Origin: an uncultured Gammaproteobacteria bacterium
GTDB taxonomy: Bacteria; Pseudomonadota; Gammaproteobacteria; Poriferisulfidales; GCA-002705445
Direction: 5' to 3'
Assembly (NCBI GenBank): GCA_913065025.1
Contig: CAJYAP010000002.1
Span: forward strand, 20,022 to 84,021
DNA: 64,000 bases
Shown: one piece after another, positions 14,394 through 58,783 of the stretch
How the letters are laid out: every line of letters starts with the position of its first letter
Numbering within the stretch: position 1 is the first letter of the stretch
Made by a program: the position numbers and the translations under genes
The notes under the pieces: generated by a model
What the model saw: only the letters and a program-made list of their open reading frames with translations
Databases searched by the model: none
What the model was told of the DNA's origin: nothing

Positions 14394-14471
14394 TGGCGGA
14401 GTGGACGGGACTCGAACCCGCGACCCCCTGCGTGACAGGCAGGTATTCTAACCAAACTGAACTACCACTCC
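14394..14471 (-). tRNA. tRNA-Asp (GTC)
   Basis: Reverse complement GGAGTGGTAGTTCAGTTTGGTTAGAATACCTGCCTGTCACGCAGGGGGTCGCGGGTTCGAGTCCCGTCCACTCCGCCA is near-identical to E. coli tRNA-Asp. CCA is encoded. Confidence 0.95.
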
Positions 14472-14488
14472 TAATACTCTACCTTCTT

Positions 14489-14564
14489 TGGTGGGTGCTG
14501 AGGGATTCGAACCCCCGACATCCGCCTTGTAAGGGCGACGCTCTACCAACTGAGCTAAGCACCC
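14489..14564 (-). tRNA. tRNA-Val (TAC)
   Basis: Reverse complement GGGTGCTTAGCTCAGTTGGTAGAGCGTCGCCCTTACAAGGCGGATGTCGGGGGTTCGAATCCCTCAGCACCCACCA. Anticodon loop is CTTACAA. Confidence 0.95.
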
Positions 14565-20787: not shown

Positions 20788-20872
20788 TGGTGGGCTAGGA
20801 GAGACTCGAACTCTCACGGGTTGCCCCACTGGTACCTAAAACCAGCGCGTATACCAATTCCGCCACTAGCCC
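20788..20872 (-). tRNA. tRNA-Leu (TAG), long variable arm
   Basis: Reverse complement GGGCTAGTGGCGGAATTGGTATACGCGCTGGTTTTAGGTACCAGTGGGGCAACCCGTGAGAGTTCGAGTCTCTCCTAGCCCACCA. Confidence 0.92.
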
Positions 20873-21831: not shown

Positions 21832-23226
21832 TTACATCATATATGATAATCCAAGATTACACTTGAAATCGGGATCCATTTGTGGTCCATCTACGTCTTC
21901 ATATATTGGAACACCGCATTGAATGCCGATTCTTGATTTTGAATTAGGTAGTTTGAAATTTAAACCAATATTTGATGATACTCTTAAATGCGAATGAAAA
22001 TATTCATTCCATGTTGGTGTCATATTATTTCTATTTGATGATTTTCCATTAATATTATCTTGATGTTCAACGTCTAAACCAAATGACAAACTTACTGTCT
22101 GTGAAACTGGTTTTGCTACCCAAGCTGACAATTCTCTTCTATCGCCATATCTCCAATCTTCACTGTTGTAGTCAAATCTTTTTGTTGCATTTAATTGAAA
22201 ACCATATGACCAATCGTCATGTATTTCCTGAAAACTATAACCTAATGTAAGATCATATGTTCCTGAGCCAAGCTGCATTGGATAAGGCAAAACTTTTCTC
22301 ATTCCCATCATATTATGATCTTTTTCATCATATTCACCTGTGGGAATTGATAAGGAAGCTTTTAAATTAGATTTTCCTGATAGTTTATATAGTCCTGCAA
22401 TGCTCAAATCACCCATTCCCCTGCTACTTGTTTTGTGTGTGTTTCCCACATTCATTCCTGACAATTTAACCATTTCCATTTCTTTTTCAATATAAGAAAT
22501 CATAGCCATCAAAGAAATCTTATTATTAACTGCGTACATTGCACTAAACATATGCATATCCATGGTCATATCAGTAGGAGCCATGCTAAACCCTAAATTT
22601 TTTATGAAATCATTACTAACTGAGCTTGTGCTATCTTTGCAACAGTCCATTTCCATGGTTCCATATTTATAACCAAACATGAGCTTTTTAGACATCATAT
22701 TTTTTCCGCCTTTTACCCCTGCTGGAAAAACATAATCTGGGCGCATCATATTTTTCATCATATGACCCATATCACCCATATCCATTTTCATTTTCATTTT
22801 CATTACAGTCATTTTCTTTACCGTAAAGACCGAAGAGAATACATCTCCACTTTTAGTAATAAAAGTAACATCAATTTCTTGATTTTCTTTGAAATCTTCA
22901 TCAGGCATCATAAACATTAAATGATAACTCATTGGCTTAAACTCAAATCTTGCATTTGCGCTAATTGTAACTGAATCTTGCTTTACCATTTTCATTACAT
23001 CACCATCTTTAACGGTATCGTGTATTTCCATAGAATCATATTTACTACTAGAAACTCCTACTATAGTAATATCCTTATCAGAATTATTTATAATAGTAAA
23101 ATAACCCGCTGCCATATTTACACCAGGTGGCATTAATCTAATTTTAGGACTTTCTATTGTCACGTCAATTGCATTTGCTGCATTTGCTGTAAAAATAAAA
23201 GCGATTATTAAAAGTAATTTTTTCAT
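21832..23226 (-). CDS. Secreted fusion protein: PCu(A)C copper chaperone domain + Met-rich linker + outer-membrane beta-barrel (MetA/phenol-degradation-type transporter family)
   Basis: Signal peptide MKKLLLIIAFIFTANAANA. Exact PCu(A)C motif: H69-X10-M80-X21-H102-X-M104. Linker MTVMKMKMKMDMGDMGHMMKNMM. C-terminal 300 aa show amphipathic strand periodicity and LSIPTGEYD...LGSGTYDLTLGYSF. Confidence 0.7.
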   Translation of the reverse strand: MKKLLLIIAFIFTANAANAIDVTIESPKIRLMPPGVNMAAGYFTIINNSDKDITIVGVSSSKYDSMEIHDTVKDGDVMKMVKQDSVTISANARFEFKPMSYHLMFMMPDEDFKENQEIDVTFITKSGDVFSSVFTVKKMTVMKMKMKMDMGDMGHMMKNMMRPDYVFPAGVKGGKNMMSKKLMFGYKYGTMEMDCCKDSTSSVSNDFIKNLGFSMAPTDMTMDMHMFSAMYAVNNKISLMAMISYIEKEMEMVKLSGMNVGNTHKTSSRGMGDLSIAGLYKLSGKSNLKASLSIPTGEYDEKDHNMMGMRKVLPYPMQLGSGTYDLTLGYSFQEIHDDWSYGFQLNATKRFDYNSEDWRYGDRRELSAWVAKPVSQTVSLSFGLDVEHQDNINGKSSNRNNMTPTWNEYFHSHLRVSSNIGLNFKLPNSKSRIGIQCGVPIYEDVDGPQMDPDFKCNLGLSYMM

Positions 23227-24240: not shown

Positions 24241-24317
24241 TGGGGCGAGAGACGGGGATCGAACCCGCGACAACCGGTACCACAAACCAGCGCTCTACCA
24301 ACTGAGCTACTCCCGCC
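24241..24317 (-). tRNA. tRNA-His (GTG) with encoded G-1
   Basis: Reverse complement GGCGGGAGTAGCTCAGTTGGTAGAGCGCTGGTTTGTGGTACCGGTTGTCGCGGGTTCGATCCCCGTCTCTCGCCCCA. The extra 5' G pairs with C73. Confidence 0.93.
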
Positions 24318-24325
24318 ATAAAAGC

Positions 24326-24402
24326 TGGTGCGCCTGATAGGACTCGAACCTATTACCCTCGGATTAGAAATCCGATGCTCTATCCAGATGAGCTACAGGC
24401 GC
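24326..24402 (-). tRNA. tRNA-Arg (TCT)
   Basis: Reverse complement GCGCCTGTAGCTCATCTGGATAGAGCATCGGATTTCTAATCCGAGGGTAATAGGTTCGAGTCCTATCAGGCGCACCA. Confidence 0.93.
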
Positions 24403-24408
24403 ATCATA

Positions 24409-24485
24409 TGGTCGGGGTAGAGGGATTTGAACCCCCGACATCCTGCTCCCAAAGCAGGCGCGCTACCAGACTGCGCTATACCCCG
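24409..24485 (-). tRNA. tRNA-Pro (TGG)
   Basis: Reverse complement CGGGGTATAGCGCAGTCTGGTAGCGCGCCTGCTTTGGGAGCAGGATGTCGGGGGTTCAAATCCCTCTACCCCGACCA. Confidence 0.93.
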
Positions 24486-44745: not shown

Positions 44746-47166
44746 ATGAATATAAATGATTATTTAAATCCAGGTAAAAGTGTAAATGTTGTAGCCGCAG
44801 CTGGAACAGGTAAAACATGGTTCATAATCTCAAAAATATTAAGACTACTATTAGATGAAGTTGAGCCAGAAAAAATAACGGCAATAACATTCACAAAAAA
44901 AACTACAGCAGAAATGCGCAATAGATTAAATGAAAAAATAGAATATTGGTCTAATTGTGAAGATAAGGATATTGTAAAAGATTTAAAACAAATAGGAATA
45001 AAGAATAATTTTACAAAATACGTAAAAAAAGCAAAAAGAATTTTTCTGACAATTCAACTAAGTACAAGAGATATAAGAATATCGACTTTTGATTCTTTTT
45101 TTTTAGAGATACTAAATCAAATGCATTTTGATAAAGATATACCAAAAAGTATCGATACAAATTTGCATCCAAAGCTAATAGCAAAAGACATAGAAGAAGA
45201 AATTTTTAGCAATAACTACTTAGAAAAAAATCCTTATATTCAAGATAATATTAATTTTTTAATGGGTTATATTGGAAGTTTTCATACCATTAAAGAATCA
45301 ATTATAGATATAACTAGCAAAAAATCCTACTTTTTAGAAATCCATAAAAATCTTGATTATGAGAAAGATGACTATGAAAATAAAGTTTCTAGAGTAATGT
45401 CATATAAGAAAAATTTAATTGAAAATATAATTAGAAATTTTAATAATAATTATATTTTAAAGAATAAATACAAAAATACTTACAACAAATTACTTTCGAG
45501 CGAAACAAGCCTGGATAATAAAGTAATTTTCATAACAGATTTCTTTTTGACAAAATCCCAAAGATCACCAAGACTTAAAGTTAAAAAAGATTTTGAAAAA
45601 TTAAATTCAAACATTGAATATTTTACATCTGATATATACAAATTTGAAGAGAATATTTATTATGAAATACAAAAATCTTGGAAGCTGTTAGCAATAACTT
45701 TTTTTAATAAATATCAAAAATCTTTGAAGAGTAAAGATTGGCATGACTATTCTGACAATACGTGGCTTTGCTTTAATAAGCTATCTGATTTAGATTCTGA
45801 TAATTGGATATACTATAAAATAGCCAACTCTATTAATCATCTGTTAATAGACGAATTTCAAGACACTAATTATTTACAATGGCAAATTATCCTAAAAATT
45901 CTTAACGCAATAAATAATTTATCTTCTTCTAATAGCGTTACAATAGTTGGAGACTCAAACCAATCTATATATGGCTTTCGTGGTTCAGAGCCTAGGTTGT
46001 TTGACTTGTGTAGAAAATATACAAAAGAAAATTTTGGTTCTGAAGATATATATCTAAATGAATCTAGAAGATCGTCGAAAGAAATAATTAATTTCGTTAA
46101 TGGTATATTTTCGGAACACAAAGACTTTTTTACAAAAATAGATGTACCTGGTTCCGTAGAGATAGAAGATATAAAAGAAACAGCTGATACACATTTGATT
46201 GCAGAAGCAAATACTATTGCTCTTCAGATTGAAAATCTTATTAATAATAAAAATATTAAATATAAAGATATAATTATACTTTCCAGAAATAGAACTCATA
46301 TAGATGAGTTAGAGAAAAAACTAATTGAAAAAAAGATTCCTGTTATTACAGATAAAAAGAGATCAATACTGGAATACAAAGAAATTATAGATATATATAA
46401 TTTGTTGAAGTATTTAATATTAGACGAACACAATGTTTTTGAACTGTTCTCATTACTAAAAAGTCCTATCTTTAATTATACAATTAATGAAATTAATCAA
46501 TATAATATTAATGATTTTTTCGAAATTGAAAAACTTATTATAGAAAGTAGCCATAACAAAAATTTTATAAAATGGAAAAGTCTCCTTGGTAGTATTCCTA
46601 TGCATGATATACTCGATATTATTTATCATGATTTAGATATTATAAATCTATATTGTGGAGATAATTATTTAAAAAATAAAGAAATAAAAAATAACTTTCT
46701 AAATTTTTTAAATTTGAGTCTAAATTTTAATAATGGAAGATATATATCACCATTTCAATTTTTACATCAACTAGAAAATATTAGAGATATTCCAGACTCT
46801 TATAATTATCCTATTGAAAATGCAGTGAGAATTTTAACTATTCATTCGGCAAAAGGTTTGGAGGCAGAAGTTATAATTCTTGCTCAAACATACCTAAAAA
46901 ATAATAATAATAAATCCAAATTGATTCCTATATTTAATCAGGATCTTTCTTGCAACGATGTTCACCTATATATACCAAAAATTTTTAAAAATAGTAAGAA
47001 TATTGAGGAAAAATTTTTATTACCTTTGCGAGAAAAAGAAACCTGCGAGGAAAAAAATCTTCTTTACGTAGCGTGCACCAGAGCAAAAAGAGTCTTAATT
47101 GCTAATGGTTTTGATAATAAAAAGTATGATGGTAGTTGGTTTTCTAATTCCTTATTTTCTCAATAA
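44746..47166 (+). CDS. UvrD/AddA/RecB-family SF1 helicase lacking a nuclease domain
   Basis: AAAGTGKTW (I), ITFTKKTTAEMRNRL (Ia), LIDEFQDTN (II), VGDSNQSIYGFRGS (III, RecB/AddA-like), ESRRSSKEI (IV), TIHSAKGLEAEVIIL (V) and LLYVACTRAKRVLI (VI). The protein ends about 30 aa after motif VI. Confidence 0.8.
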   Translation: MNINDYLNPGKSVNVVAAAGTGKTWFIISKILRLLLDEVEPEKITAITFTKKTTAEMRNRLNEKIEYWSNCEDKDIVKDLKQIGIKNNFTKYVKKAKRIFLTIQLSTRDIRISTFDSFFLEILNQMHFDKDIPKSIDTNLHPKLIAKDIEEEIFSNNYLEKNPYIQDNINFLMGYIGSFHTIKESIIDITSKKSYFLEIHKNLDYEKDDYENKVSRVMSYKKNLIENIIRNFNNNYILKNKYKNTYNKLLSSETSLDNKVIFITDFFLTKSQRSPRLKVKKDFEKLNSNIEYFTSDIYKFEENIYYEIQKSWKLLAITFFNKYQKSLKSKDWHDYSDNTWLCFNKLSDLDSDNWIYYKIANSINHLLIDEFQDTNYLQWQIILKILNAINNLSSSNSVTIVGDSNQSIYGFRGSEPRLFDLCRKYTKENFGSEDIYLNESRRSSKEIINFVNGIFSEHKDFFTKIDVPGSVEIEDIKETADTHLIAEANTIALQIENLINNKNIKYKDIIILSRNRTHIDELEKKLIEKKIPVITDKKRSILEYKEIIDIYNLLKYLILDEHNVFELFSLLKSPIFNYTINEINQYNINDFFEIEKLIIESSHNKNFIKWKSLLGSIPMHDILDIIYHDLDIINLYCGDNYLKNKEIKNNFLNFLNLSLNFNNGRYISPFQFLHQLENIRDIPDSYNYPIENAVRILTIHSAKGLEAEVIILAQTYLKNNNNKSKLIPIFNQDLSCNDVHLYIPKIFKNSKNIEEKFLLPLREKETCEEKNLLYVACTRAKRVLIANGFDNKKYDGSWFSNSLFSQ

Positions 47167-53162: not shown

Positions 53163-55904
53163 ATGATTGATAATAAATACAATCCGTCAGAAATTGAAGA
53201 GAAGTGGTATAAGGAATGGGAAAAAAATAAAGTATTTTCACCGTCTAATAATGGTAATGCCTACTGTATAATGATTCCTCCGCCAAATGTTACTGGAACC
53301 CTTCATATGGGTCATGCATTTCAAGTAACTTTAATGGATATTTTATGCAGGTATCACCGAATGCTTGGTGACAATACACTTTGGCAAGCTGGGACAGATC
53401 ATGCAGGTATAGCTACTCAAATGGTTGTTGAAAGAAAACTCACTGCTCAAGGCATTTCTAGAACCGATCTTGGAAGAGAAAAATTTATAGATCAAGTGTG
53501 GGATTGGAAAAGTCAATCTGGAGACATTATAACAAAACAATTAAGAAGAATGGGTGCATCCCTTGACTGGGAAAGCGAAAGATTTACGTTGGATGAAGGT
53601 TTATCTGTAGCAGTAAATAAAGTTTTTATAGATCTTTACGAAGAAGGTTTGATTTACAAAGGTAAAAGGCTTGTAAATTGGGATCCAGTTCTTCAAACAG
53701 CGTTATCTGACTTAGAGGTAATTTCTTCTGAAGAAAATGGTAAAATTTGGGAGATTAAGTATTATCTAGATGACGACTCAGGAAACTTTTTAAAAATTGC
53801 GACTACAAGACCTGAGACAATTCTTGGAGACACAGCTGTAGCCGTTAACCCAGAAGACAAGAAATATTCCGATTACATTGGTAGAAATGTAATAGTGCCA
53901 ATAACAGGCAAAACAGTGCCAGTAATAGCTGATGATTATGTAGATATGGAGTTTGGTACAGGATGTTTAAAAATTACACCGGCACATGATTTTAATGATT
54001 ACGAGTTAGCAAAAAAACACAATTTAGAGATTATAAATATTTTTGATACATCGGCAAGAGTTAAATGTGATACGAAAGAATATAATAACTTAGATAGATT
54101 TTCAGCAAGAAAAAAAATTCTTTCGGAACTTAAAAATTCTGATCAGCTCTTAAAAGTTTCAGATCATAAAATGATAATACCTAGAGGAGATAGAAGTCAC
54201 TCAATAATTGAACCTTTAATGACAGATCAGTGGTATGTAAAAATCAAACCACTTGCAGATGAGGCTATAAAATGTGTAAAAGATAAAGAAATAAAATTTG
54301 TTCCTGAAAATTGGGAAAAAACTTATTTTGAGTGGATGAATAATATTCAAGACTGGTGTATCAGTAGGCAATTATGGTGGGGTCATAGAATTCCAGCTTG
54401 GTATGATGAAGAAAAAAATATATATGTCGGTAAAGATGAGAAAAATATAAGAGTAAAATACGATATCAAAGATGATGTAATTTTAACTCAAGACGAAGAT
54501 GTCCTCGACACATGGTTTTCATCCTCTTTATGGCCATTTTCAACACTTGGTTGGCCCAACGAAACAGAAAGAGTGAAAACTTTTTACCCTACTAGTGTTC
54601 TTATCACTGGATTCGATATTATTTTCTTCTGGGTTGCGAGAATGATTATGATGGGGAAAAAATTTGTTGGTGAAGTTCCTTTCAAAGAAATATATGTTCA
54701 CGGTTTAGTTAAAGACTCATCTGGAAATAAGATGTCTAAGTCCAAAGGTAATATAATAGACCCAATAGATTTAATAGACGGTATAAAATTAGAAAATCTT
54801 ATTAGTAAAAGAGCATCTGATTTAATGCAACCAGATATGGCAGAAAAAATTAAGAAAAATACAAAAAAAGAATATCCAGGCGGCATAGATGCATATGGAA
54901 CAGACGCATTAAGATTTACATTTGCTTCGCTAGCAAGTAATGGAAGAGATATAAATTTTAATCTCAAAAGAGTAGAAGGTTATAGGAATTTTTGTAATAA
55001 ATTATGGAATGCAGCTAGATTTGTGAAAATGCAAGATCAAATATTCATAGAACAGATAGATAATAATAATTTTCAAGATGAAGAACTATGGATTAGAAAT
55101 AAATTAGCAGAATTAATAGACAATACAAAAAATAATTATAAAAATTATAGATTTGATTATGCCTCAAAAAGTTTATACAGCTTTATATGGCAAGATTACT
55201 GTAGTTGGTATATAGAAATAACAAAATCTAAACTTAATAAAAAAAATATTACTGATGTAGATAAAAGCTTAATAATTTTTAACCTAAGACATGTGTTGAA
55301 AAATATATTATTACTTTTACATCCAATCATGCCGTTTATAACAGAAGAGATTTATAATGATGTTTTTAATGAAAAAAAATTCTTGCAGGACAACAGTTAC
55401 CCAGATTCAAGTAATTTTTTAACTACTTCCAATGTTGAAAATATAAATTGGATGATTGAAATAGTTTCAGCAATAAGGAAAACAAGATCAGAAATTGGGG
55501 TCCAACCTAATAAAGACATTGAAATAATAGTCACTGGTGAAAACGATAAAGATAAGTTTTTCTTTGATACCCTATCCTCTCTTATAATGAGTTTAGCAAA
55601 AGTAAAATCTATTAGTTTTGGCAAGGAAGATAAAAATAATAACTATTACACATGCGTATCAAATAATTTAAAATTACTAATACCGTCATCAGGTTTGATA
55701 GATGTTGAGTCTGAAATTGAAAGACTATCTAAAGAAAAATTAAAGTATATTAACCAAACTGTTGGCATAGAATCAAGATTATCAAATCCTGACTTTATTA
55801 ATAATGCTCCAGGACATATTGTTGTTTCAGATGAGCAGAAGTTAAAAGAACTTAAAGTTCAAATTTCTAAGATTGAGGAGCAAATAAAGAATTTTACTAA
55901 CTAA
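53163..55904 (+). CDS. valS: Valine--tRNA ligase
   Basis: PPPNVTGTLHMGHA (HIGH), KMSKSKGN (KMSKS) and a C-terminal coiled coil; 913 aa. Confidence 0.97.
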   Translation: MIDNKYNPSEIEEKWYKEWEKNKVFSPSNNGNAYCIMIPPPNVTGTLHMGHAFQVTLMDILCRYHRMLGDNTLWQAGTDHAGIATQMVVERKLTAQGISRTDLGREKFIDQVWDWKSQSGDIITKQLRRMGASLDWESERFTLDEGLSVAVNKVFIDLYEEGLIYKGKRLVNWDPVLQTALSDLEVISSEENGKIWEIKYYLDDDSGNFLKIATTRPETILGDTAVAVNPEDKKYSDYIGRNVIVPITGKTVPVIADDYVDMEFGTGCLKITPAHDFNDYELAKKHNLEIINIFDTSARVKCDTKEYNNLDRFSARKKILSELKNSDQLLKVSDHKMIIPRGDRSHSIIEPLMTDQWYVKIKPLADEAIKCVKDKEIKFVPENWEKTYFEWMNNIQDWCISRQLWWGHRIPAWYDEEKNIYVGKDEKNIRVKYDIKDDVILTQDEDVLDTWFSSSLWPFSTLGWPNETERVKTFYPTSVLITGFDIIFFWVARMIMMGKKFVGEVPFKEIYVHGLVKDSSGNKMSKSKGNIIDPIDLIDGIKLENLISKRASDLMQPDMAEKIKKNTKKEYPGGIDAYGTDALRFTFASLASNGRDINFNLKRVEGYRNFCNKLWNAARFVKMQDQIFIEQIDNNNFQDEELWIRNKLAELIDNTKNNYKNYRFDYASKSLYSFIWQDYCSWYIEITKSKLNKKNITDVDKSLIIFNLRHVLKNILLLLHPIMPFITEEIYNDVFNEKKFLQDNSYPDSSNFLTTSNVENINWMIEIVSAIRKTRSEIGVQPNKDIEIIVTGENDKDKFFFDTLSSLIMSLAKVKSISFGKEDKNNNYYTCVSNNLKLLIPSSGLIDVESEIERLSKEKLKYINQTVGIESRLSNPDFINNAPGHIVVSDEQKLKELKVQISKIEEQIKNFTN

Positions 55905-55912
55905 ATAAATAG

Positions 55913-57826
55913 TTAAGCAATATTCATATTAAGAATTCCTTCCATTTTTTCAGCAGTTTCGGATTTGCCAGTTCTACTATCACCTATCATAGCTACTGTT
56001 ACATCAACTTCATGTAAATCTTTTCCTAGTTTCTCTCTTTTTTTAATAGCAAATTCTTTAACAGAAACTATTAGAGATTCTGCAAGTCTTATTGGACCCT
56101 CTTGCTCAATTTCTTCCCTATTTTTAAACCCAGACTCTAAAACTTTCTCGTCAGTATTTCCTTCATACACCCCTGCCATTAACATGCTGTATGCGACACC
56201 AACTTCCATATCACCCGTTTTAACTAATTTTTCAATAGTTGAAATTAATTCTTCTTCTGTATCGGTATACTTTTCATATAAATCTTTATGAATAATTGTA
56301 CCGTCATTATCTTTCAACAAAGGAAATGGGTTAGCCCAATAACTAATCTCTGTGCCACCTCTTCCGGTCTGAGTACTTCCAGCGGCACATCTTCTTCCAT
56401 CATGAAAATGAACAATTGCATCTTTAACTGGCATTCCTGTATCAACCATTGTTTCCCCAGGTTTTTTTAAATCATAATTATTTATATAAAGTAATAAATC
56501 TAAATTACTTCCGGTCGAAACCTCGTTTTCTTCTGCCACAGGAACAATTTGTCTAGCATTTGTACCAGCCGAGGCATTGTAACCGATCTCTCTTCCAATA
56601 AGCTGAAGCTTTGCTTGTTCGCTAAATCCGTCGAGGCATGCAAAAGCTCCAATTTCAGTGCCGTAGAATTTCAATTTTTTTAATTTATCATTATCGCTTT
56701 TATAAAACTCTGCCTTACCCATATCATCAGCTTTTATATATATATCCGAAATAAATGGCTCATTTGTATCCTTGTCAAAACCAACAACGTATCTATTACA
56801 TCCACAATGTAAGGGAAAGTCTCCTTTAAGAATAGCAAGAACATTGTGTAATGTTAAAATTGGTTTTTTACAGTAACCAAAATAACCATATTCAGGTAAG
56901 TCAGGAACAAGCCCAATTAATATATCGTTTTCCTTGTCATTATAAAAACCTAAATCTTTTTCTGTTGCCCCAGGATAGCCAAAGAAAAATATTCCGTCTG
57001 GTTTTTTATTTACAAAGTCTTTATCGATCTTATATAGTGGAAACAAGTTTAATAATCCTGGCTCCATTTCAATACATCCTCGAGATTTATGAATGTAAGC
57101 TGTTATTAACCACTTCCCAACACTTAAAGGTACAGCAACCCAATCGTTGGGTTCAAAATTATCTAAATTCAAAGGATTGTGATTTAATTCATAGAACGGA
57201 AAAGCTCTTTTGTTTACTGATGTCTCGTAATGTACTCCGGTTTTAATATCTGCAGTAACTGTTAAGTTTGTATGCGCGAGCTTCGAATAAGCTGAGGGGA
57301 TACTTCCAAAATGCCCAGATATTTCTCCAGCAGTAACATTGGGGGATGCATCTAAACCATGAGATCTTGAAACACCGTGGCCAAGACCAACTCTATCAAG
57401 TAATTTTCTTCTTGTGGTAATAATTAATTCAGAGAGATCTTCTGCTTTGTCAGATATTTTTGCTTTAAATGATTTTTGCGATTCTGAGCCAGAAGTTATT
57501 ATATCATTATTCATTCTAACCAATCTAGAAAAGCTTTTATTTCTATAATGATGATAGCAGCCATCTAGGAATCTAACTATTGCCCTATCTCTTTCTAATT
57601 CAACACCCGTGGCTTCTCTTTCAAAGATTTGAAGGATATCTTTTAAGGTTAAATTAGCAATAAGCTCCGTTTTCTGTTTAGCTTCTTGAGAATGTTTTTC
57701 CCCTTTCTTTTCAAGATCTTCAAGATATTCCTTCTTATATATTTTCAAATATCTTGCGAAAGCGTAACTTCTTAAAAGCTGCTCTGATGTTACACAACTA
57801 TCTTTTATCTCTAGTATCGATTCCAC
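55913..57826 (-). CDS. Hypothetical 637-aa soluble protein, family not recognised
   Basis: Uninterrupted ORF with a GTG start and GGGGA SD 6 nt upstream. No signal peptide or TM segment. I found no P-loop, HExxH, GxGxxG or CxxxCxxC. Notable strings are GLGHGVSRSHGLD, PLHCGCNRY and FHDGRRCAAGSTQTGRGGTE. Confidence 0.8.
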   Translation of the reverse strand: MESILEIKDSCVTSEQLLRSYAFARYLKIYKKEYLEDLEKKGEKHSQEAKQKTELIANLTLKDILQIFEREATGVELERDRAIVRFLDGCYHHYRNKSFSRLVRMNNDIITSGSESQKSFKAKISDKAEDLSELIITTRRKLLDRVGLGHGVSRSHGLDASPNVTAGEISGHFGSIPSAYSKLAHTNLTVTADIKTGVHYETSVNKRAFPFYELNHNPLNLDNFEPNDWVAVPLSVGKWLITAYIHKSRGCIEMEPGLLNLFPLYKIDKDFVNKKPDGIFFFGYPGATEKDLGFYNDKENDILIGLVPDLPEYGYFGYCKKPILTLHNVLAILKGDFPLHCGCNRYVVGFDKDTNEPFISDIYIKADDMGKAEFYKSDNDKLKKLKFYGTEIGAFACLDGFSEQAKLQLIGREIGYNASAGTNARQIVPVAEENEVSTGSNLDLLLYINNYDLKKPGETMVDTGMPVKDAIVHFHDGRRCAAGSTQTGRGGTEISYWANPFPLLKDNDGTIIHKDLYEKYTDTEEELISTIEKLVKTGDMEVGVAYSMLMAGVYEGNTDEKVLESGFKNREEIEQEGPIRLAESLIVSVKEFAIKKREKLGKDLHEVDVTVAMIGDSRTGKSETAEKMEGILNMNIA

Positions 57827-57919
57827 TCTTAATCCCCACTATTAAAAAAAATAATAAAAACTAATCATCCCTGAAATATATTACTTTTATCTTTATAATT
57901 TATAGTAATAACGCTATAC

Positions 57920-58783
57920 ATGAATTATATTACCAAATATATACTAAATTATATTATTGAATTTATGAATCAAATGATAAATAAAATTTATCCCCCTAGT
58001 AAAAAAAAACTATATAAAGCCAGTACTTTATACTTAAATCCCTTATTATCAAAGGTATATAAGCAATATAGACCACTATATTATGCAAATTTTCTTACCA
58101 GTTTTGATGGAAGAATTGCGACATATGATAAAAAAAACTCTTGTTTATTAACTCCTCAAAGTATCAAAAGTAGCGTAGATTTCTCTCTATTTTGTCAACT
58201 TCATGCTCAATCAGATTGCTTGGTAACGAACACACAATATATAAAAGGTTTAAATAAAGGTTATTATGGAAATATTCTAACTGTAAATAATGATACCTTG
58301 AAAAGATGGCGCAATAAAAATGGTATAAAAAAACAGGAGATCATAATTTTAAGTAACAGCTTAGATTTCCCAATAAATAATAAGATTTTAGACTTAAAAG
58401 ATAGAATAACTATTCTTACAACATCAAAAAATAATAAAAAAATAAACAATTTTAAAAAAAATGGTTTTAAACTTACTAAGTTTAGAGGAAAAAATATTTC
58501 TGCTAATCAATTAAATAAGTATATTTTAAAAAATAATTTTAAAGCTGTATATTTTATAGCTGGCCCAACAATTGTAGAACAAATGATTAACTCTAATTTA
58601 TTAGATAAGCTCTACAGTAGTACAAGTATAAGCATGATGGGAACGCAAAAATATGATACGATCATTAGAGGGAACTTTCTAAAAAATCCTATTGATATAG
58701 AGCTAATAGAAATGTATATATATACTGAACATGTAAAAAGGAGACAAACATTGTTCCAAGTATTTAACACAAAAAGGAAATAA
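57920..58783 (+). CDS. RibD C-terminal domain (DHFR-like pyrimidine reductase fold) family protein
   Basis: YYANFLTSFDGRIAT (compare ISLDGKIA), a mid-region ...IILS.SLDFP... and C-terminal YFIAGPTIVEQMINSNLLDKLY. The true start may be the internal MNQMINK. Confidence 0.6.
   Translation: MNYITKYILNYIIEFMNQMINKIYPPSKKKLYKASTLYLNPLLSKVYKQYRPLYYANFLTSFDGRIATYDKKNSCLLTPQSIKSSVDFSLFCQLHAQSDCLVTNTQYIKGLNKGYYGNILTVNNDTLKRWRNKNGIKKQEIIILSNSLDFPINNKILDLKDRITILTTSKNNKKINNFKKNGFKLTKFRGKNISANQLNKYILKNNFKAVYFIAGPTIVEQMINSNLLDKLYSSTSISMMGTQKYDTIIRGNFLKNPIDIELIEMYIYTEHVKRRQTLFQVFNTKRK

Follow-up and report, generated by a model that had tools for sequence, protein, structure and literature searches.

The stretch of DNA analyzed here, which we call the window, is 64,000 nucleotides of contig CAJYAP010000002.1 from an uncultured bacterium of the Gammaproteobacteria. 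It contains a gene that encodes a protein 637 amino acids (aa) long. An earlier note, made from the sequence of the window, had described this protein as an orphan with no recognizable signature and an undescribed function. We found good support for the conclusion that its fold and catalytic core are like those of phosphoenolpyruvate (PEP) carboxykinase (PEPCK), placing it in the PEP carboxykinase (PEPCK/HprK-type P-loop kinase) superfamily. It is also well supported that the unit carrying the phosphate-binding loop (P-loop) has been relocated in this protein from the middle of the chain to the C-terminus, as a near-identical unit. The description as signature-free was mistaken, since the protein contains a Walker A motif and is linked to the PEPCK superfamily by both profile and structure comparison. 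We consider it highly probable that it is a PEPCK-superfamily enzyme with a relocated P-loop.

Relationship to PEP carboxykinases

Searches of Pfam, NCBIfam, and PDB with the 637-aa sequence as a single query gave no significant match, in agreement with the earlier note, which could name no family; the protein escapes the curated family models. A profile of the long form alone, as we call the query and its close homologues, found nothing in PDB. When 1.84 billion cluster representatives were searched exhaustively with a profile, only 306 clusters matched, and among them was a second group of proteins, about 550-595 aa long, that match query residues ~10-530 and that we call the short form. The relationship to PEPCK surfaced only once this search had recovered the short form. 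Members of the short form showed repeated sub-threshold matches to positions 173-253 of PF01293 (best E-value (E) 1.8e-5) and to the NCBIfam PEPCK subfamily NF006821 (best E 8e-8), and short-form residues ~350-400 also matched generic P-loop families. In the family profile search, members were found at E 1e-287 to 1e-30, and the query showed full-length homology and all of the core motifs given below, which do not vary in the family alignments.

Alignment of a profile of 25 family sequences, including both forms, with E. coli PckA using hhalign gave a probability of 95.6 % (E 1.3e-8) and placed PckA residues 148-347 on query residues 258-439. E. coli PckA was also the best PDB match of the family hidden Markov model (HMM; E 0.003). 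We then compared predicted structures with PDB using Foldseek. With a first AlphaFold model based on 36 sequences (predicted local distance difference test score (pLDDT) 72), all of the top 50 matches were PEP carboxykinases, with a best E of 1.7e-7. A second model based on 64 sequences from both forms (pLDDT 87.0, predicted template modeling score 0.87) again had PEPCKs as 50 of its top 50 matches. For this model the best E was 3.7e-10, the match probability was 1.00, and alignments extended up to 527-537 columns against the 527-residue PckA. The matched structures were ATP- and GTP-dependent enzymes from bacteria, trypanosomes, and vertebrates. By this comparison, the modeled protein has the two-domain PEPCK fold. 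The short and long forms together are a distinct family that constitutes a separate deep branch of the ATP/GTP-type PEPCK superfamily.

PEPCKs are divided into ATP-, GTP-, and pyrophosphate (PPi)-dependent classes, the last of which is unrelated to the other two; the enzymes that depend on ATP or GTP belong to one superfamily with the same catalytic mechanism, and the reaction runs either way (PMC8100219). The long form shares with the ATP-dependent enzymes (E. coli PckA; PF01293; EC 4.1.1.49) the two-domain fold and a homologous catalytic core with counterparts of Tyr207, Lys212, Lys213, His232, and Asn331/Arg333, a lid-like loop, and a Walker A motif in which Ser, Lys, and Ser/Thr occupy the positions of PckA Ser250, Lys254, and Thr255. 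It differs from them in having only ~12-14 % identity in structural alignments, in scoring under the Pfam and NCBIfam thresholds, in the extra 145-residue helical N-terminus and acidic helical C-terminal region, in the C-terminal rather than canonical location of the Walker A unit, and in the lack of recognizable Arg65 and adenine-binding regions. The GTP-dependent enzymes (rat and human cytosolic and mitochondrial, Mycobacterium, Corynebacterium; EC 4.1.1.32) were matched by Foldseek at E 1e-8 to 1e-7 over 500-630 columns. They are farther from the long form than ATP-PEPCK by both sequence and structure scores and, unlike it, have a central P-loop. The earlier note had held that a high-probability match to a characterized enzyme family would remove the novelty of this protein. 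Such a match exists for the superfamily and the catalytic core and does not extend to membership in the ATP- or GTP-PEPCK family.

Two architectures and the position of the P-loop

In the short form (~575 aa), a strand, the Walker A motif, and a helix (xVIIIGDSGAGKSETLEAxxxxA) lie between the PxH and DDMG strands, exactly where PckA has G248-T255. Opposite this central unit and PckA G248-T255, the long-form sequences, including the query, have a gap of 22 columns. The corresponding query segment, PLHCGCNRYVVGFDKDTNEPFISDIYIKADDMG, forms one continuous hairpin in the model (strands 337-350 and 357-375) where the central unit is missing. The long form ends with an extra segment, EVDVTVAMIGDSRTGKSETAEKMEGIL, predicted to form a strand (606-614), a loop, and a helix (617-632), and this segment comes after a 30-residue helix equivalent to the C-terminal end of the short form. 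Within it is GDSRTGKS, a perfect match to GxxxxGK[ST] that is invariant among homologues and is the only such motif in the protein; the earlier note had overlooked it and reported the P-loop as absent. Between the His232 strand and the kinase-2 strand, the canonical position, Walker A is found in the short form and not in the long form. The classical order of P-loop motifs is also broken in the long form, where the DD strand (366-368) precedes Walker A (615-622) by ~250 residues.

We determined the location of Walker A in 313 full-length family members with DDMG as the anchor. The motif was only central in 180 and only C-terminal in 125, and none of the 313 had it at both positions. Six divergent members without the DDMG anchor were left unplaced, and the two that appeared to have neither P-loop were one truncated and one mistranslated sequence. 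This mutual exclusivity of the two positions argues that exactly one P-loop is required. When an HMM of the short-form central unit was searched against all 157 stop-to-stop frames of the window, the C-terminus of the query was the best match (18.4 bits, E 7.7e-6), followed by the Walker A of an ABC ATPase at 9.1 bits.

When the 514 core columns common to both forms were compared, without the moved unit, the two architectures formed two clean clades. The lowest identity between long-form sequences (33.7 %) was higher than the highest identity between a long-form and a short-form sequence (30.5 %). The two forms are homologous over residues ~10-600 with 24-30 % identity, share the N-terminal helical region, and have in common the core motifs NLF, YFGYxKK, PxH, DDMG, GTExGAF, NAR, a G-x-R...G-T lid loop, and ANPF. 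They differ in that the Walker A unit of the short form, (V/I)IIGDSGAGKSE, is central and no C-terminal extension is present. They also differ in their hosts, which are anaerobic Firmicutes and Fusobacteria for the short form and metagenome-assembled genomes (MAGs) of Gammaproteobacteria and Burkholderiales as well as symbionts for the long form.

Because PEPCK and the short form share a central P-loop, we regard the central arrangement as ancestral. The long form looks derived, apparently by a single event, and the rearrangement is formally a permutation of the nucleotide-binding segment. The simplest route would be that this segment was duplicated and that the original unit and everything past the new one were then lost. 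The nearest precedent that we found for a reordered P-loop is provided by the circularly permuted GTPases YlqF/RbgA, YqeH, and YjeQ/RsgA, which are functional P-loop NTPases with reordered nucleotide-binding motifs (PMC2848588, PMC3597669). In these proteins the entire domain of the GTPase fold is permuted (G4-G5-G1-G2-G3), whereas in the long form a single strand-loop-helix has moved within a multi-domain PEPCK-type enzyme and the order of the remaining chain is kept.

Active site, proposed reaction, and alternatives

The ligands of the catalytic Mn2+ in PckA are Lys213, His232, and Asp269. Contacts to PEP/oxaloacetate and to the phosphate being transferred come from Tyr207, Lys212, and Arg333, and the P-loop residues Lys254 and Thr255 bind the nucleotide phosphates and Mg2+. 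Mutant PEPCK structures among the Foldseek matches target these residues. The motifs of the query that align with them are listed with the other features of the gene in Table 1. No variation is seen across both forms at Y315, F316, G317, Y318, and K320, and K321 is nearly invariant; Y315, K320, and K321 fall on PckA Tyr207, Lys212, and Lys213 so that the PEPCK-specific motif Y-x-G-x-x-K-K is present. The invariant R425 is aligned with Arg333 of the N-T-R motif, and upstream N260-L-F262 is aligned with PckA N150-M-F152. The earlier note had pointed to clusters of His, Cys, and Gly as a metal or active site; this was borne out by YFGYCKKP and PLHCGCN, which lie on Tyr207...Lys212/Lys213 and on His232, respectively.

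Table 1. Features of the gene and its product, with positions in the window
Feature	Residues	Position	Strand	Remarks
Long-form PEPCK-like protein, complete open reading frame (ORF)		55913..57826	minus	637 aa + stop, GTG start, uninterrupted
Shine-Dalgarno-like GGGGA		57833..57837	minus	6 nt 5' of GTG; direct sequence reading
N-terminal all-helical region	1-145	57392..57826	minus	AlphaFold helix 14-145; conserved in both forms
PEPCK-like catalytic core	~160-510	56297..57349	minus	beta-rich; hhalign and Foldseek
YFGYCKKP	315-322	56861..56884	minus	hhalign to PckA Y207-G-G-E-M-K212-K213-G
PLHCGCN	338-344	56795..56815	minus	His340 on PckA His232 (hhalign); P338 and H340 invariant
Hairpin turn FDKDTNEP	350-357	56756..56779	minus	site where central strand-P-loop-helix unit is missing
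ADDMG	366-370	56717..56731	minus	kinase-2/Walker-B-like Asp pair (probable); D367, D368, M369, G370 invariant in both forms
GTEIGAF	389-395	56642..56662	minus	invariant block past ADDMG: G389, T390, E391, G393, A394, F395
NARQIVPV	423-430	56537..56560	minus	on PckA N331-T-R333-V-S-Y-P337-I; N423, R425, P429 invariant
HFHDGRRCAAGSTQTGRGGTE	473-493	56348..56410	minus	loop aligned to PckA HFLSGFTAKLAGTERGITE (permissive hhalign)
Acidic helical C-terminal region	514-600	56027..56287	minus	helices 514-536 and 570-600; pLDDT about 87-95; isoelectric point (pI) 4.66
C-terminal strand-P-loop-helix unit	605-637	55916..56014	minus	strand 606-614, helix 617-632; absent from short form
Walker A GDSRTGKS	615-622	55961..55984	minus	GGT GAT AGT AGA ACT GGC AAA TCC

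Of the other putative metal ligands, the invariant His340 is aligned with His232. From its sequence, ADDMG is probably the kinase-2/Walker-B-like pair and a candidate counterpart of PckA Asp268/Asp269. This assignment is only probable because hhalign and HMMER place ADDMG six residues further on, at PckA D274-G277, with D367-D368 on D274-D276 and not on Asp269. By position, GTEIGAF may correspond to the FEGGCYAK block of PckA, in a register that is not fixed. A permissive alignment that is individually non-significant places FHDGRRCAAGSTQTGRGGTE on the HFLSGFTAKLAGTERGITE loop of PckA, and in the model the HFHDGRRCAAGSTQTGRGGTE loop is a candidate for a mobile active-site lid. G477, R479, G483, and T485 of this loop are invariant, and residues 483-487 are the only segment of the second model with a pLDDT <50, as expected of a mobile lid loop. 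No sequence alignment to E. coli PckA was obtained for the N-terminal helical region (1-145). The invariant arginines R154 and R207 are candidates for the counterpart of PckA Arg65. The predicted secondary structure, helical over 1-145, beta-rich over ~160-510, and helical over 514-600, agrees with the three-part layout given in the earlier note, and the C-terminal helical region is acidic, as it had stated.

We give an even chance to the possibility that the 637-aa protein is a soluble, nucleotide-dependent PEP/oxaloacetate carboxykinase-type enzyme with a transposed P-loop. In this mechanism the C-terminal unit, borne on a long helix, would insert at the former place of the central unit. Lys621 and Ser622 would then bind the beta- and gamma-phosphates of the nucleotide and Mg2+ beside a metal site formed by Lys321, His340, and Asp368. 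The P-loop would be delivered in cis or, in an oligomer, conceivably in trans. The reaction would be oxaloacetate + NTP <-> PEP + CO2 + NDP (NTP and NDP, nucleoside tri- and diphosphate), with phosphate transferred between the NTP and the enolate derived from oxaloacetate. As with PEPCK, it could run in either direction and serve in gluconeogenesis or in anaplerotic CO2 fixation. PEP and oxaloacetate may be the physiological substrates, a suggestion that comes close to being evenly balanced. It is rather doubtful that the long form is a fourth working type of PEPCK beside the ATP, GTP, and PPi types, with a C-terminal P-loop that possibly acts in trans between subunits, and that it serves as the unrecognized enzyme that interconverts oxaloacetate and PEP and fixes CO2 anaplerotically in uncultured chemolithoautotrophic and symbiotic Gammaproteobacteria.

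Several points weigh against a carboxykinase-type function. On PF01293 the short form scores at best 24.1 bits, with a gathering threshold of 26.5, and on NF006821 at best 31.3 bits, with a cut-off of 369; the 637-aa query itself gives no match to the curated PEPCK models (PF01293 and the NCBIfam PRK09344 models). Global template modeling scores of the model against PEPCKs are only 0.33-0.44, values that fit a PEPCK core embellished with the 145-residue helical N-terminus and the helical C-terminal region. The N-terminal oxaloacetate-binding Arg65 region of PckA (GRSPKDK) and its C-terminal adenine-binding region could not be mapped on the query, with non-significant results even from permissive hhalign, and the register of ADDMG is ambiguous, as described above. 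We infer the docking of the C-terminal P-loop into the active site. The gene neighborhoods of neither form lend metabolic support. We found no biochemical data on either form in the literature. The short form comprises >5,700 proteins. In Anaerococcus, Clostridium, Fusobacterium, and Ilyobacter, NCBI and UniRef give it the name phosphoenolpyruvate carboxykinase, usually with no Pfam match. Because our literature search found no experimental characterization of the short form, this name is a computational label. Our searches for literature on this family, on PEPCK in SUP05 or Anaerococcus, and on a relocated Walker A found no description of the family.

The alternative that we take most seriously, although we think it appreciably less probable than not, is that the protein is a kinase with the PEPCK fold that applies the same metal/P-loop chemistry to a substrate other than the oxaloacetate enolate. 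This could be a sugar derivative, some other 2-oxo or hydroxy acid, or a protein serine, the last being the substrate of HPr kinase/phosphorylase (HprK/P). The family is at least as far from ATP-PEPCK as ATP-PEPCK is from GTP-PEPCK and fails every curated PEPCK model. Two positions within the conserved motif are changed and invariant (PckA G208 is Phe316 and PckA E210 is Tyr318), the Arg65 region is not recognizable, and there is the extra helical region of 145 residues at the N-terminus. The Walker A motif, GDS(G/R)xGKSE, resembles that of HprK/P, and so does the arrangement of a GDSGxGKSE-type Walker A followed by a helix and then a hydrophobic strand ending in Asp-Asp. HprK/P has a C-terminal PEPCK-like domain and belongs to the same superfamily, and one short-form member faintly matches Hpr_kinase_C (E 0.098) and TIGR00679 (E 0.058). 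These matches are far below threshold (12.6 bits against 33.3 for PF07475; 12.6 bits against 240 for TIGR00679). HprK/P is also a protein kinase of only ~310 residues, and it is absent from the top 50 structural matches, all of which are PEPCKs with alignments that span both PEPCK domains; no HprK chain was found among the PDB profile matches up to E 10. A YdjC-family gene near the short-form gene in two of three genomes is a further point for a different substrate. Little or no variation is seen in the lid-like loop or at the counterparts of Tyr207, Lys212/213, His232, and Arg333, the PckA residues described above as binding Mn2+ and PEP/oxaloacetate, and this favors a carboxykinase.

It is improbable that the protein is a catalytically dead, PEPCK-like pseudoenzyme with a structural or regulatory role, inactivated by loss of the central P-loop; GDSRTGKS at the C-terminus would then be an unrelated tail that binds nucleotide or acts in regulation. 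In favor of this reading, the long form has no P-loop at the canonical position, the residue that would correspond to PckA Lys288 in the preferred register is Arg in the short form but Cys397, which is invariant, in the long form, and the placement of the C-terminal unit in space is an inference. Against this, the long form keeps the putative metal and substrate residues invariant or nearly invariant, the ratio of nonsynonymous to synonymous substitution rates (dN/dS) is about 0.03, and the C-terminal unit is near-identical, including its strand and helix, to the functional-looking unit of the short form, whose HMM it matches best in the window. None of the 313 census members has both P-loops or genuinely neither. 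The reading in the earlier note, that of a genuine orphan whose fold is new and whose function is undescribed and possibly metal-dependent, is now extremely unlikely. In its favor are the lack of significant matches in our single-sequence Pfam, NCBIfam, and PDB searches and the database names, which are essentially all "hypothetical". Profile-sequence and structure comparison refute it, both giving the PEPCK superfamily at high confidence; Walker A is present, and there are thousands of relatives, some of them already labeled PEPCK.

Distribution, genomic context, and significance

The long form has >450 homologues in a large protein database, and together with the >5,700 relatives of the short form these contradict the term orphan used in the earlier note. 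Full-length homologues are ~631-684 aa long and share 55-91 % identity with the query; Pfam domains are absent from all of them, and nearly every one is named "hypothetical" or "uncharacterized". In GTDB contigs (one genome per species) we found 193 loci that encode a relative, and the locus-level results given here cover the best 80 of these. Nearly all are from uncultured bacteria, including the low-GC marine lineage of the window. The hosts include "Candidatus Porisulfidus" sponge symbionts, a Galathealinum tubeworm endosymbiont, hydrothermal-vent bins, some Burkholderiales, and MAGs labeled Thiohalomonas, Thiohalophilus, Piscirickettsiaceae, or Thiotrichales.

The reading frame is intact, or runs off the contig end, at all 80 loci. 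Comparison with a close orthologue gave a dN/dS of 0.027 at a synonymous divergence (dS) of 0.69, and more saturated comparisons gave 0.03-0.05. The protein is under strong purifying selection, as the earlier note had suggested, and is an enzyme in use. We therefore rejected the possibility of a pseudogene or decaying gene, which the earlier note had proposed to check through frameshifts or stops in orthologues.

Two homologues deserve separate mention. NCBI and UniRef list the long-form member P0115 (VAW54234.1, from a hydrothermal vent metagenome) as "NAD-specific glutamate dehydrogenase, large form". We rejected this label, which has no supporting domain match and looks like a propagated mis-annotation; glutamate synthase adjoins the long-form gene at some loci (for example L016) but is different from glutamate dehydrogenase. 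In P0122, a long-form homologue of 637 aa, Trp occupies nearly every conserved Gly position (WDSRTWKSE, YFWYLKKP, EIWAFACLDD). Its sequence suggests that the source is probably an organism in which UGA encodes Gly (genetic code 25, of the Gracilibacteria/Absconditabacteria type) and that the gene was translated with UGA as Trp. If so, the long form is also present in bacteria of the candidate phyla radiation.

The description of the gene itself in the earlier note was accurate. The start codon, the uninterrupted frame, and the Shine-Dalgarno sequence can be read directly in the DNA. The stop codon lies 8 nt from that of the convergent valS gene (53163..55904), and a 93-bp spacer separates the start from a divergent RibD_C-like gene (57920..58783, plus strand). 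Long ORFs run antisense at 55965-56291 and 56851-57246. There is no transmembrane segment (maximum Kyte-Doolittle 19-residue window 1.02). The G+C content (GC) of the ORF, 34.3 %, is the maximum in the neighborhood, as compared with 29.5 % for the window and 24-31 % for five nearby genes, consistent with the claim in the earlier note that it is less AT-skewed than weakly constrained neighbors. A scan for promoters and terminators over 55500-58300 was uninformative, giving the same counts as shuffled sequence.

The gene order amidase - sohB - RibD_C-like - target - valS - pepA is found only in the lineage of the window, at about 12-20 of the 80 loci. In other lineages the long-form gene is mostly solitary, with intergenic gaps on either side, and no conserved partner gene was found across the 80 neighborhoods. 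Neighbors that recur within other sub-clades encode unrelated housekeeping functions: GltB (glutamate synthase), DnaG, an AcrB-type pump, GshA, DbpA, a His_Phos_1 (His-phosphatase-family) protein, and an HD-domain protein. The divergent pairing with the RibD_C-like gene that the earlier note had described is kept at about 12 of the 80 loci, all within this lineage, and offers no functional clue. Because the synteny with valS, pepA, sohB, and the RibD_C-like gene is confined to one lineage and other sub-clades have unrelated housekeeping neighbors, we rejected a functional tie to this reductase. The RibD_C-like neighbor scores only 31 bits on PF01872 and falls far short of the NCBIfam cut-offs for RibD and pyrimidine reductases, has a very low GC of 24.4 %, and is a divergent reductase-like protein whose role is not clear.

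At five of the 80 loci, a gene of the histidine-phosphatase superfamily (phosphoglycerate-mutase-like; cluster c19; for example L047 4016-4618) lies in convergent orientation at the end of the long-form gene or no more than ~50 nt from it, in one case with an overlap of 4 nt. The neighborhoods of the short form, from three genomes, are variable. A YdjC-family (carbohydrate deacetylase-type) gene is directly 3' of the short-form gene in an Ilyobacter genome (L082 8833-9567) and ~3 kb 3' of it in Clostridium amazonitimonense (L084 11571-12320), and it is absent in Anaerococcus (L083). This proximity is too weak to be used and could be a hint of a different substrate or chance.

Elsewhere in the window, a UvrD/Rep-type helicase of 806 aa is encoded at 44746-47166 (plus strand; gene GC 24.5 %). 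The N-terminal helicase profile of 254 positions is stretched across 413 of its residues, implying large low-GC inserts; these are the helicase inserts with which the earlier note had compared the composition of the 637-aa ORF. A protein of 464 aa is encoded at 21832-23226 (minus strand), of which residues 25-128 match the PCuAC copper-chaperone domain and the remaining ~330 have no Pfam assignment at E <= 1e-5. Six tRNA genes, arranged as a pair (14397-14564), a single gene (20791-20872), and a cluster of three (24244-24485), all on the minus strand, account for every Rfam match that the window gives at the gathering threshold.

These results bear on annotation, with about 450 long-form proteins now named "hypothetical" and >5,700 short-form proteins carrying an untested "PEPCK" label. 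Because the long form is named in this way, reconstructions of uncultured Gammaproteobacteria and Burkholderiales, of sponge and tubeworm symbionts, and of vent communities miss a probable enzyme of the PEP-pyruvate-oxaloacetate node. In reconstructions of SUP05-type thiotrophic symbionts, "all known" enzymes that replenish oxaloacetate were reported to be missing, and the host was proposed to supply it (PMC5270565). None of the best 80 of the 193 loci bears the name Thioglobus, Ruthia, or Vesicomyosocius, and we do not claim that the long-form gene fills this gap. Since its hosts include chemosynthetic symbionts and vent Gammaproteobacteria, an unrecognized PEPCK-type enzyme is relevant to such reconstructions, and reported absences of anaplerotic enzymes need re-checking given cryptic PEPCK-like enzymes.

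The 637-aa protein does not represent a categorically new function and is an uncharacterized PEPCK-superfamily enzyme with a transposed phosphate-binding loop. For protein evolution, it is a case in which the catalytic Walker A strand-loop-helix was excised from the middle of an enzyme and re-supplied at the C-terminus, with two clean sister clades and no intermediates. The family thus offers a natural experiment on the transposition of essential active-site elements.

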